32,000 nt of DNA from NCBI RefSeq assembly GCF_002945325.1, contig NZ_CP026606.1:600001-632000 (forward strand), given 5' to 3'. Below, piece after piece: positions 15,181 to 29,320 of the stretch (positions within the stretch are counted from its first letter, which is position 1; each line of letters starts with the position of its first letter). Below the pieces are notes generated by a model, which searched no databases, had not been told where the DNA came from, and saw only the letters and a list, made by a program, of their open reading frames with translations. The DNA is from Methanococcus maripaludis (GTDB taxonomy: Archaea > AGJL01 > Methanococci > Methanococcales > Methanococcaceae). The translations under genes were made by a program, and so were the position numbers.

Positions 15181-15259
15181 AGCGAGGTAGGGTAGCCAGG
15201 CCTATCCCGCCGGGCTCATAACCCGGAGATCAGAAGTTCAAATCTTCTCCTCGCTACCA
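15181..15259 (+). tRNA. Initiator tRNA-Met (CAT), copy 1, CCA encoded
   Basis: Cloverleaf read by eye: acceptor AGCGAGG/CCTCGCT with an A1:U72 pair, anticodon stem CCGGG/CCCGG (three consecutive G:C pairs) around CTCATAA, T-arm AGAAG-TTCAAAT-CTTCT, and a terminal ACCA followed by a T-run. Confidence 0.9.
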
Positions 15260-15358
15260 TTTTTTATAATGAAATATTTTCAAAATGATTCGTACAATTT
15301 TAAAATTGTTATTCGAGTTTTTGGAATCTTTTTTGATCCAAATAATATTTGTAATTGA

Positions 15359-15437
15359 AGCGAGGTAGGGTAGCCAGGCCTATCCCGCCGGGCTCATAAC
15401 CCGGAGATCAGAAGTTCAAATCTTCTCCTCGCTACCA
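15359..15437 (+). tRNA. Initiator tRNA-Met (CAT), copy 2, identical to copy 1
   Basis: 79/79 nt identical to 15181-15259. It also shares the TTGA 5' flank and the T-run 3' flank. Confidence 0.9.
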
Positions 15438-26174: not shown

Positions 26175-26286
26175 TCTTTAGGGACACTCCATGTGAATAA
26201 TTGTGGTCGTGTGGGGCATATTCTTAAATTGTGGTTGGGGAACCTGAAAGTTATATGCCCCTCGAAAACGACTGGCTTTTTTGTAT
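26175..26286 (+). ncRNA. Candidate small structured RNA of unknown class
   Basis: TTAAATATATA box at 26146-26156. A 9-bp perfect long-range stem GGGGCATAT (26213-26221) / ATATGCCCC (26253-26261) encloses the hairpin GGTT-GGGG-AACC (26233-26244). A T6 run lies at 26277-26282. The segment is locally G-rich and has no ORF. Confidence 0.3.
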
Positions 26287-26683
26287 TGATTTAAAAAATT
26301 TAAAAGAATCTTTTAAATAGTGTCAAAATAACTATTTTTAACGAAATTAACGAAATTCAGTAAAAAAATAGATAAAAAAGCATTCTAAAGTTTTTTATAA
26401 ACTTAATTAATAAAAGTTTTGGGGTTGACATATCATTATTGATATGATTAAATATAACTTAAAGTAATAGATGTACTAGAAATGGCTCGATGATGATTGT
26501 CATCACAAGAAATATATATTAAATCTATATATGTTTCGAGGTAATTTATCATCGTTAACATCCCGATTTTTAAAAAATTAAGTTCCTTATTTTGACGATT
26601 AAAGAGCGGAAAACGCTTATTTTTTTAGACGATTTTTAGACGAATAAAACGACTATTTTTAAGATTTATGTAAAAAACGATTA
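26267..26683 (+). repeat. Iteron-like array of ACGA-core motifs
   Basis: AACGACT 26267-73; perfect tandem TAACGAAAT x2 at 26339-56; inverted copy ATCGTTA 26551-57; GACGATT 26594-600; TTTAGACGA at 26624-32 and 26635-43 (11-bp phasing); AAACGACTA 26647-55; AAAACGATTA 26675-83. Confidence 0.45.
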
Positions 26684-26689
26684 ATCTAT

Positions 26690-27195
26690 GGTTATTCATT
26701 TTGGCGAGTTTCTAAGTTGTACGTGGATTTCCCACCCCAACACCTTGATTACTATTATAAGTCCTGACGGAGCAGGCGAACTTACCAAAGGGTATACGCC
26801 AAACCCCTCTTACAGGGGTTTGGCTACCGCCAAGATAGGGGCTAACGCCCATGAAAAGTGCCTTTGGGCAGATTGATTTTATCGGAGTTATGAATTGCTA
26901 ACGCAATTCATTCAATTAGGCTTACGTTAAGCTACTTCGGACACCTGGTCCGATTGCTTTCGCAGGTCGCGACCTGCTCAGACGTTTCTCGAACCGCCAA
27001 GATTGATTTTATTTTTTAGAGTGTAGGCAGTTCTCCGGAACGCCACGCAATCTATAAATTTAAACACGTCAAGCCCATGGCTTATATACCCTTTCGGGTA
27101 TAAATCGCCGGGGCGATAGTTAGAGCTTAGAGCTTATTGATTAATGACCCTTCGGGTCGGGATTCCAAAAAGAAGAATAATTCACCGTTTTTAAT
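26690..27195. ncRNA. GC-rich hairpin-dense island: candidate large or multi-part structured RNA, or ssDNA-structure element; class unknown
   Basis: GC is 33/60 at 26761-26820 and 35/60 at 26941-27000, against 11/60 at 26341-26400 (my counts). There are at least 12 near-perfect stem-loops, T-run terminators at 27007-17 and 27188-92, and no credible ORF. Confidence 0.4.
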
Positions 27196-27202
27196 AGTTA
27201 AA

Positions 27203-27229
27203 TTTATATAGTATAACTACTATATAGTA
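27203..27229 (+). promoter_or_regulatory. Promoter with a TATA-containing repeat/operator for the polyvalent-protein operon
   Basis: TTTATATA lies at 27203-27210. TATATAGTA occurs at 27205-13 and 27221-29. The first copy forms a perfect 9-bp inverted repeat with TACTATATA at 27218-26. GGTGG RBS is at 27253-57, and the ATG is at 27263. Confidence 0.45.
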
Positions 27230-27262
27230 GCTTATACAGAAGGTAACAAAACGGTGGTAGAA

Positions 27263-29320
27263 ATGGTTAAAAAATCAGTTAAAGATATTATAACGGAAAA
27301 AATTATAAATAGATTAGAATCCGGCGATATTCCTTGGATTAAACCGTGGGGCTTTACTCCATCAGTAAATTATGTAACAGGTAAAGAGTACACCGGAATA
27401 AATAGAGTTTCTTTGGAGAAAGGGGGTGAATATTTAACATTTAAACAGATTGATGAATTAGGCGGAAAAGTCAAAAAAGGAAGTAAAGCGGAAAAAGTAG
27501 TATTTTATAAAGAATATGAAAAAATCGAAAGAGATCCCGATGACCCCGATTTAATGAACATAAAAGACACTTTCGCTTTAAGATATTATAATGTGTTTCA
27601 TATATCCGATGTCGAAGGAATAAGAAGTAAACTTCCAGAAATGCCAGAAATAAAACATAATCCAATAAAAAATGCTGAAGAAATAATAAATAATTATGAA
27701 ATCCCAGTAAATGAAATAGAACTCCGAAAAAGGGCAACATATGACCCGATAACGGATAAAATAGAAGTTCCAACAAGAAACCAATTTAAAAAAATAGAAG
27801 GTTTTTATGGAACTGCATTTCATGAAATCGGACACAGTACAGGACATGAAACAAGATTAAACCGCCCCGAATTAATAAAACCGTGTGCATTTGGTAGTAA
27901 AAACTATTCAAAAGAAGAACTGACCGCAGAAATAACCGCATCATTTTTAAATAATCATTGTGGGATCTTTGAAAATAATATTGAAAACAACGCCGGATAT
28001 ATACAAAGTTGGATAAAAGCATTAAAAAATGATAATAATATGATCCTTTACGCATCAGCAAAAGCGGAAAAAGCTTTAAATTATGTTTTGGAAAGTGTAG
28101 AAAAGAATAAATCAAAAATAACCGAAACAATAACAGAAATTAAAACAGTTAAAAAAGTTCAGGCGGATTTATTAGATTTTATTAAAAATCAACCTGAAAC
28201 CCCTTCTTTTAAACCTGAAATAAAACCGGAACCAATAAAAGAAGAAGCAAAGAGAATTAATTTAAAAGCTGCGAAAAGTTTGGAAGCAAAAGCGGAAAGC
28301 CTGAATAAAAAAATTGAAAAAAAATTAAGTTGCTTTGCAAATTGCAACATGACGAGAAGACGTGCAAACTTTAGAGAAAGTGCGAGAATTGATGCAGAAA
28401 ATTTAAAAAAAGTACAAAGTGTTTTATTTAATTTAGCAAAACTCCACAGAAGCGGAGAAATTAAAAAAGAAGTTGAAAATATAAATGCAGTTTCACAAGT
28501 TGAAATATTATTATGCGAACACGTCAAATATAAAACTCCAAACGATATTGAGCCCGATTATGGGGAATGGGCAAAAGAAGAGATTTTAAAAAGATTTAAA
28601 ATGTTTAATAAATTAAATATTCATTCTCAGAACGATTTAAACGAAACAAGGGAAATTTTAAAAAGTTTAATTCTTGAAGAAAGCCAGGACGAAAAAACAA
28701 AAAGAGAACTTCAAAAACTGGAAGATAATTTGATCGGTTTAAAAATTCCTGGATTTTTCCCAACTCCCAAAGAAATTATAAAAGATATGATCGATAAGGC
28801 AGAAATAAAAGAGAATGATTCTATCCTTGAACCCTCCGCAGGAAAGGGAGATATTGCAGAAGTAATAAACGAAGAAACCGGAATAAAAGCCGATTGTATC
28901 GAAATAAATCCAACATTACAAACAATATTAAATAAAAAAGGTTTTGAAACAGTAGAAAGTAATTTTTTAGAATTTAATGGTAAATATGATAAAATTATAA
29001 TGAATCCACCTTTTGAAAAAGGTCAAGATATAGAACACGTAACCCACGCATACAATTTATTAAACAATGGCGGAAAGCTTGTTTCGATTATGTCAAATTC
29101 AGTAACATTTAGAAATGATAAAAAATATATGGAATTTAGAGAATTTTTAAAAGAAAATAACGGATATATTGAAGAACTTCCAGAAGGATCTTTTAAAAAA
29201 TCCTTCAACAGCACAGGAGTTAAAACTATAATGGTAGTTATTGAAAAAAACTACCCTTCATCAAATTTTTCTTTAGCCACAGCCCCGACACCACACCACT
29301 CAAGAAAAATGTATGTTTAA
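27263..29320 (+). CDS. Polyvalent fusion protein: ArdC-N (DUF1738) ssDNA-binding domain + ArdC-type HExxH metallopeptidase + helical linker + N6-adenine (NPPF) DNA methyltransferase
   Basis: The N-terminus (ITEKIINRLESGDIPWIKPW...TGKEYTGINRVSL...YLTFKQIDELGGKVKKG...YYNVFHISDVEG) matches ArdC-N. FHEIGHSTGHETRLNR...YSKEELTAEI matches the ArdC C-terminal metallopeptidase. The C-terminus has FFPTP, motif I ILEPSAGKGDI and motif IV IIMNPPF. ATG 27263 is preferred over GTG 27254. Confidence 0.8.
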   Translation: MVKKSVKDIITEKIINRLESGDIPWIKPWGFTPSVNYVTGKEYTGINRVSLEKGGEYLTFKQIDELGGKVKKGSKAEKVVFYKEYEKIERDPDDPDLMNIKDTFALRYYNVFHISDVEGIRSKLPEMPEIKHNPIKNAEEIINNYEIPVNEIELRKRATYDPITDKIEVPTRNQFKKIEGFYGTAFHEIGHSTGHETRLNRPELIKPCAFGSKNYSKEELTAEITASFLNNHCGIFENNIENNAGYIQSWIKALKNDNNMILYASAKAEKALNYVLESVEKNKSKITETITEIKTVKKVQADLLDFIKNQPETPSFKPEIKPEPIKEEAKRINLKAAKSLEAKAESLNKKIEKKLSCFANCNMTRRRANFRESARIDAENLKKVQSVLFNLAKLHRSGEIKKEVENINAVSQVEILLCEHVKYKTPNDIEPDYGEWAKEEILKRFKMFNKLNIHSQNDLNETREILKSLILEESQDEKTKRELQKLEDNLIGLKIPGFFPTPKEIIKDMIDKAEIKENDSILEPSAGKGDIAEVINEETGIKADCIEINPTLQTILNKKGFETVESNFLEFNGKYDKIIMNPPFEKGQDIEHVTHAYNLLNNGGKLVSIMSNSVTFRNDKKYMEFREFLKENNGYIEELPEGSFKKSFNSTGVKTIMVVIEKNYPSSNFSLATAPTPHHSRKMYV

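Follow-up and report, generated by a model that had tools for sequence, protein, structure and literature searches.

We analysed a stretch of 32,000 nucleotides from the chromosome of Methanococcus maripaludis JJ (contig NZ_CP026606.1, positions 600,001 to 632,000 of the forward strand; henceforth referred to as the window, by whose own numbering positions are given unless another locus is named), in which a GC-rich island packed with hairpins lies at 26690 to 27195. The genes to the left of the island are ordinary chromosomal ones, encoding an S-layer protein, ABCE1, PolB and a Pab1020-type RNA ligase. To its right lies a fusion gene for an ArdC-N domain, a zincin peptidase and a DNA methyltransferase (27263 to 29320, + strand; henceforth referred to as ArdC), a neighbour that stands outside the module described here, together with a homologue of t26-6p that carries Pfam T26-6p domains and whose adjoining genes are syntenic with the elements of M. 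maripaludis strains C5 and X1. The t26-6p gene is a hallmark of the pT26-2 plasmid family. Similarity to the chromosomes of element-free strains carrying an identical RNA ligase stops at 26504, which places the junction at 26504/26505 (mapped with the empty-site loci L001-L003 and L007). Judged by these genes and this junction, the island belongs to an integrated pT26-2-family plasmid in the JJ chromosome and begins about 190 bp inside its left junction.

A conserved, non-coding island at the element's end

The GC content of the island is 44.7%, compared to 33.5% for the whole window and 24-26% for the adjoining intergenic DNA, and by this measure no other 506-nt stretch of the window scores as high, with 60-nt blocks reaching 55-62% where the original prediction had counted 55-58%. 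The longest stop-free run in any frame is 61 codons and the indels among its variants are not multiples of three, and the island is therefore non-coding, in agreement with its earlier description as free of open reading frames (ORFs). The minimum free energy of the island folded as RNA was -167.6 kcal/mol on the + strand and -165.5 kcal/mol on the - strand, compared to about -133 ± 7 kcal/mol for dinucleotide shuffles (z about -5), and 0 of 100 shuffles were as stable; folding with DNA parameters gave z = -5.8 (+) and -6.95 (-).

A homologue search in other genomes, in which variants were gathered from the surroundings of ArdC and t26-6p relatives, recovered seven distinct versions of the island (conserved core about 26693 to 27158), all from M. 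maripaludis: JJ, C5 (locus L008), L011/L012, X1 (L072), L076, L077 and L013/L014. Their identity to the JJ island is about 82% at best and falls to regions that blastn fails to align. The elements occupy at least three chromosomal sites, beside the RNA ligase gene, ilvC (KARI) or a Fer4/CCG gene, and in every variant the island stands at the element's end. The next gene is ArdC in four of the seven (JJ, C5, L011 and L013); in X1, L076 and L077 it is an ORF of 213-215 amino acids that is unrelated to ArdC (L072 13742-14389, L076 4938-5579 and L077 5227-5874, all on the - strand) and has zero Pfam or PHROG matches. Since an unrelated gene follows in three variants, the island goes with the end of the element and, by this comparison, is independent of ArdC. 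The tie to ArdC suggested by the original prediction is thus positional only, and the island was likewise missing upstream of 51 phage homologues of ArdC; such homologues, at 40-46% identity, sit in phage contexts (P0015 being an unrelated methyltransferase context). The L013 variant has about 170 extra nucleotides between island and ArdC (L013 9760-9900), with additional hairpins that include CCCC-A-GGGG, CCC-TTC-GGG and GTCC-TTTG-GAT; over its last 110 nt the identity to JJ is 91%, over the remaining island about 73%, and it shares the H4 hairpin (see below) of X1 and L077. From these patchwork identities and the shared hairpin we conclude that the variants are mosaics.

Searches beyond these variants returned no further members. 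No counterpart of the island occurs on the free relative plasmid pMEFER01, blastn matched it to nothing among the PLSDB plasmids or GenBank phages, and exact-pattern scans gave 0 matches in IMG/VR and three in the JGI metagenomes, each a chance match of 22-26 nt. Protein-guided scans of GTDB genomes with t26-6p alignments confirmed nothing, and the proteins that a word-based search with t26-6p brought up were all near-identical. At the gathering threshold, Rfam 15, whose models include those of C/D and H/ACA sRNAs, had no family for the island in any variant and, elsewhere in the window, matched only two tRNA-Met genes, which were also all that an ARAGORN scan of the window for tRNA and tmRNA found (15181-15437). 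Even at E<=10 on positions 26400-27400 the sole match was sR55 (13.6 bits, 26486-26510), which lies outside the island, so that the earlier failure to assign it to tRNA, rRNA, RNase P, signal recognition particle RNA or a riboswitch holds against these models. By these comparisons, the island is conserved and unmatched by any known family.

Covariation, a three-way junction and the conserved hairpins

We scored the whole island on an RNAalifold structure of 117 pairs built from five variants. Of the cells, 92.4% were paired and 24 pairs were changed on both sides, compared to 10.2 ± 2.3 double changes when partners were shuffled (0 of 500 shuffles reached the observed count) and 1-11 when partners were slid by 1-3 columns. 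Within the island, a three-way-junction domain about 95 nt across occupies 26951 to 27052. It is closed by a helix of 26952-57 with 27047-52 and contains H11 (26962-67 with 26972-77, which is the 16-bp palindrome listed in the original prediction), H12 (26983-88 with 27037-42) and H13 (26991-27000 with 27024-33), the last capped by a conserved AU-rich loop that holds a T4AT6 run (27007-17). This architecture was identical in all seven variants folded singly. Counted on a plain MAFFT alignment of the seven, 94.6% of the junction cells were paired and 11 of the 27 pairs change on both sides, compared to 3.1 ± 1.4 in shuffles (0 of 500) and 0-3 in slid controls. The 6-bp closing helix occurs as GAUUGC/GCAAUC, AAUUGC/GCAAUU or GGUUAC/GUAACC; in H11 a G-C pair becomes A-U in L076; H12 occurs as CGUUUC/GGAACG or CACC/GGUG; and H13 occurs as GAAC-CGCCAA/UUGGC-GUUC, GAAAACG/CGUUUUC or GAAAUACAA/UUGUAUUUC. 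In L077 and L013 whole helix sequences are exchanged with the architecture unchanged. The original prediction had turned in part on compensatory base changes, which are expected of a structured non-coding RNA, and these exceeded the controls both across the whole island and within the junction. Because the closing helix pairs bases about 95 nt apart, the selected object would be a folded single strand and not duplex palindromes, cruciforms, a chance run or a decayed gene. The alignments therefore indicate that the island is selected for the fold of one single strand, with some twelve GC-rich hairpins and a junction closed over a long range.

The hairpins of the island are described here without assignment to a strand; all those listed in the original prediction are present in the JJ sequence at the coordinates given there, as are the palindrome, the TAGAGCT tandem and both T-runs. 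H3 (UCC-UGAC-GGA, 26762-26771) directly follows an invariant single-stranded CUAUUAUNAG, shows a CG/UA compensatory change and is kept in all seven variants. H4 (26791-26828) is the 11-bp perfect stem 26798-26808/26814-26824 with its GGTA/TACC extension, a stem that was recovered separately by repeat search; four of its 11 pairs change on both sides (CG<->UA, AU<->GC, CG<->AU) and 96% of its cells are paired. H6 (26839-26850) is GGGC-UAAC-GCCC in JJ and GGGC-UUC-GCCC in the other six. The hairpin UGCC-UUUG-GGCA (26859-26870) is elsewhere GCU-UUUG/UUUA-AGC (C-G to U-A) and is missing from L013, as is H8 (26890-26911), a 9-bp perfect stem with a UAAC loop in JJ (TGAATTGC-TAAC-GCAATTCA at 26891-910, which shares its loop with H6 as originally described) and a UGAA loop in L077. 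The sequence GCTTA-CGT-TAAGC lies at 26920-32 and CTTCGG at 26935-40, and further hairpins lie at 27026-44 and 27071-83. The invariant stem of H16 (UAUACCC-UUUC-GGGUAUA, 27085-27102) bears the invariant CTTATATA in its 5' arm, and its loop is UUUC, UUC or AUUC. In the adjoining AUCGCC-GG-GGCGAU (27104-27117) the stem is conserved and the loop variable. Two tandem copies of TAGAGCT (27121-34) then lead into the third copy of a single-stranded motif, (A/U)UUGAUUU(U)AU, the whole spanning 27121-27145, with the other two copies at 26870-26882 and 27000-27012; for this recurring motif, UUGAUUUAU, no enriched complement was found elsewhere in the window. The last conserved hairpin is H18 (GACCC-UUC-GGGUC, 27146-27158). 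Read on the + strand, hairpin loops keep a U-N-A-N pattern (UAAC, UGAC, UGAA, UAAA and UCAA), which includes C(UAAC)G, a recurrent tetraloop of rRNA.

Nature of the island

We lean, with restrained confidence, towards the view that the island is the gene of an undescribed, element-encoded structured non-coding RNA (ncRNA) of about 480-500 nt that is independent of the downstream gene. We infer its RNA nature, strand, transcript ends and role; if it is such a gene, we put transcription in the sense of ArdC at about two-thirds. Transcription would then start near 26695 from a TATA-like box at about 26665 and end at the conserved T-run at about 27188, with a possible shorter isoform that stops at the internal T-run (27007-17). 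The hairpins would present conserved single-stranded U/A-rich segments, namely the three copies of (A/U)UUGAUUU(U)AU and the apical loop of the junction arm, as putative binding sites for a protein or nucleic-acid partner, which might serve maintenance or transfer of the element or its defence against the host. Several signals speak for an RNA of the + strand. The candidate promoter TTTATGTA (26665-26672, + strand), with one mismatch to the archaeal TATA consensus TTTATATA, lies 15-22 nt before the conserved island and is present, at -21, in JJ, L011 and X1. The T5 run at 27188-27192 could terminate a + strand RNA: all variants have a run of T5-T7 starting 25-31 nt past H18 despite a poorly conserved spacer, against a probability of 0.2-0.3 that 45 nt of this DNA contain a T5, and a consensus TTTATATA belonging to the next gene comes immediately after it. 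The junction pair 37-89, where five variants have U.G, one C-G and one U-A, and the U-N-A-N pattern of the loops favour an RNA of the + strand. The unpaired bases of the island are only slightly U-rich on that strand; domain energies, counts of G.U versus A.C, fold energies and unpaired-base composition give no strand direction.

The original prediction of a structured RNA gene of no known class is supported in so far as the fold is conserved by compensatory changes in seven variants and has no Rfam match; fold energies and G.U/A.C counts are symmetric between the strands. A number of observations weigh against an RNA. The consensus energy is -87.9 on the + strand and -96.8 on the - strand for five variants (-90.2 and -104.5 for seven), and the pairs common to the predictions for both strands comprise 445 Watson-Crick cells, 3 G.U and 3 A.C, a wobble count that is unusually low for RNA and symmetric between the strands. 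In three variants H4 contains an A.C mismatch that would read as G.U on the opposite strand. The candidate promoter is missing in C5 and L013. In six of the seven variants the + strand carries the T4AT6 run within the covarying junction, as part of the loop that caps H13, and archaeal RNA polymerase normally stops at runs of this kind. Terminators of M. maripaludis have been the subject of published work (PMC8716108). An RNA of the - strand has a difficulty of its own, as A5-A6 runs would sever the conserved left-hand block in C5, L011 and L077. The paper on the JJ transcriptome makes no mention of non-coding RNAs (PMC11097638), and a literature search yielded no expression data for the island locus. 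Lastly, the family is narrow, consisting of seven partly related variants of one species, so that part of the covariation rests on two divergent members.

The main rival is a module that works as single-stranded DNA, providing priming sites, a packaging signal or hairpin promoters, a reading that we regard as doubtful and in which the single-stranded stage would arise through the putative DNA-secretion module of pT26-2, through uptake by natural transformation or through rolling-circle-type synthesis. The nearly pure, strand-symmetric Watson-Crick pairing of the core helices and the strong DNA-parameter folds on both strands agree with it, and the T-runs that are a problem for RNA on either strand cease to be one if the module acts as a DNA fold. 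On the - strand (the ArdC template), many loops are of the types C(GAA)G, GCGAAGC, C(GAAA)G or C(GNNA)G, which are very stable mini-hairpin motifs in DNA. The ArdC-N domain is a single-stranded-DNA-binding anti-restriction domain, and TATA-like sequence sits in the stems of H16 and of a hairpin at 27206-27227. There are precedents of this kind: the intergenic region of Ff phages holds a packaging signal and both origins in about 500 nt and five hairpins, rolling-circle plasmids have their sso, and ssi and Frpo hairpin promoters precede anti-restriction genes in conjugative leading regions. The island resembles these in being about 500 nt long, ORF-free, packed with hairpins and at an element's end, with an ArdC-type gene downstream in four variants. 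It differs from them in that the three other variants have no anti-restriction gene downstream, that archaeal promoters differ in kind, and that the parts of the elements covered (13-15 kb, most of whose proteins have no family match) contain no relaxase, oriT (origin of transfer) or HUH Rep. We know of no single-stranded transfer in the pT26-2 family, nor of any shown for an archaeal plasmid. A role in DNA transfer, with an ATPase resembling VirB4/HerA, has been proposed for the core module of the family, whose elements are described as replicating by the theta mode with MCM (PMC6972569). The absence of the island from pMEFER01 also counts against a DNA module, and many hairpins of 3-5 bp in a multi-branch architecture are more typical of RNA. 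That the island is a single-stranded-DNA working region, playing in archaea the part of the Ff intergenic region or of the priming sites and hairpin promoters of leading regions, is a claim we hold to be unlikely; if it were true, a pT26-2-type lineage would be transferred or taken up as one strand, and its first genes, e.g. the ArdC-methyltransferase gene, would be expressed from folded DNA, or the complementary strand primed from it.

The remaining explanations fit the covariation less well. An array of double-stranded protein-binding palindromes or cruciforms, serving as origin, partition site or regulator operators, would account for the perfect 16-bp palindrome, the inverted repeats of H13 flanking an AU-rich stretch and the iteron-like repeats in the adjoining AT-rich region, and published predictions of an origin for the C5 and X1 elements were 'not found'. 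It is quite improbable in that duplex palindromes leave the helix between bases about 95 nt apart and the covarying, nested H12 and H13 unexplained, most stems (3-6 bp) are too short for cruciform extrusion, the centre of the palindrome is non-palindromic in C5, L011, L076 and L077, and stems that change freely while keeping their complementarity would require a dozen co-evolving proteins. A long cis-acting 5' leader of the ArdC-methyltransferase mRNA, such as a riboswitch, attenuator or thermometer, is very unlikely: in four of the seven variants the island does lie immediately ahead of ArdC and in its orientation, with an internal T-run that could in principle attenuate, but the unrelated gene downstream in X1, L076 and L077, the 51 phage ArdC genes that lack the island, the absence of any riboswitch or leader family match in Rfam and, at the sequence level, the conserved T-run and distinct consensus TATA box that lie between island and ArdC all speak against it. 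The island's GC content is foreign to the surrounding DNA, as would be expected of the remnant of some decayed GC-rich gene, whether rRNA or a foreign coding sequence, or it could be a chance run of hairpins; this reading is close to refuted, as neither Rfam at E<=10 nor blastn against plasmids and phages produced a parent gene, no reading frame is preserved, none of the 100 shuffles folds as well and the compensatory changes exceed their controls. We also considered RNA-guided integration and dropped it, since the island's variable segments are not matched to the integration site: C5 shares the site of JJ yet resembles L011 in these segments.

If the island encodes an ncRNA, as we favour, its nearest counterparts would be of two kinds. 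Klein, Misulovin and Eddy reportedly found the Hgc RNAs of Methanocaldococcus and Pyrococcus in 2002 by GC-content screens. The island is likewise a GC-rich, ORF-free, hairpin-rich stretch in an AT-rich methanococcal genome, but it matches HgcC, HgcE, HgcF and HgcG in neither sequence nor structure, is far longer than most of them, and lies on a mobile element of one species and not in the core chromosome. GOLLD, ROOL, OLE and HEARO are large structured ncRNAs linked to bacterial phages and mobile elements. With these it shares a length of several hundred nucleotides, several domains supported by covariation, carriage on an element and the lack of a fixed neighbour gene; unlike them it is archaeal and has no match to their Rfam 15 models. 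As an RNA it would add a class of large, element-borne ncRNA to the archaea, and as folded DNA it would give the first hint that the pT26-2 family passes through a single-stranded stage. On either view, the island marks where elements previously reported without detectable limits truly end on the left. M. maripaludis is a genetically tractable model methanogen, and the module is present in its type strain JJ; RNA-seq data exist for JJ (PMC11097638), a CRISPR/Cas12a editing toolbox has been described for the species (PMC9295151), and the question is therefore directly testable.

The host element and its surroundings

The pT26-2 members of Methanococcales have been described as targeting tRNA-Ser or tRNA-Leu, and the elements of C5 and X1 are among those listed, with 'no detectable limits' (PMC6972569); that account of the family (see also PMC2926602) describes no non-coding module such as the island. 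The element in JJ agrees with the family in its t26-6p-type and neighbouring core genes and in having relatives in C5 and X1, and differs in its junction, which lies in a C/D-box small RNA (sRNA)-like gene and not at the 3' end of tRNA-Ser or tRNA-Leu. The left junction (attL side, 26486-26504, + strand) consists of the 5' part of this gene, GGCTCGATGATGATTGTCATC, which is all that is left of it beside the element on this side. At the empty site (L001 11562-11650) the gene has all four boxes (C, D', C' and D, being AUGAUGA, CUGA, AUGAUGA and CUGA), and its best Rfam match is sR55 at 24 bits, under the gathering score of 35. The guide at the empty site thus resembles Pyrococcus sR55 at a score below threshold.

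Between the junction and the island lies an AT-rich conserved leader of the element (26590-26686, here also without assignment to a strand), at whose start, about 26590, the element homology in L011 and X1 begins. It contains iteron-like repeats, with TTTTTAGACGA present twice at 26622-26643 alongside related copies GACGATT, ACGACTA and ACGATTA, and the block AAACGCTTATTTTTTTAGA, within which a T7 run is kept in five of the five variants analysed (at -66 to -60; L076 and L077 were outside this set). An origin, a terminator or arm sites for the integrase may lie in this leader. On the other side of the island, the putative ArdC promoter region (27203-27228, + strand) has TTTATATA at 27203-10, and this TATA box lies mostly inside the 5' arm of the 9-bp hairpin TATATAGTA-TAAC-TACTATATA (27206-27227), whose loop is TAAC as in two hairpins of the island. 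A 48-nt AT-rich leader, AAACTCCAAAATATAAAACTCCAAAACTCAAAGAGGTCATAAAT, stands before ArdC and again before the next small gene (L011 9953-10000 and 11985-12031; L008 9953-10000 and 11997-12044), and this repeat also accounts for some metagenome contigs breaking off precisely where ArdC starts or ends. We therefore rejected the ends of the L010 contig as transcript ends, since this repeat flanking ArdC explains them.

Two features of the chromosomal part of the window lie apart from the element. The two tRNA-Met (CAT) genes are identical and lie 178 bp apart on the + strand (15181-15259 and 15359-15437). An inverted repeat GGGGCATAT...ATATGCCCC followed by a T7 run lies 3' of the RNA ligase gene (26215-26275, equivalent to L001 11290-11360); it is chromosomal, is present in element-free strains and is probably a terminator or a small RNA.

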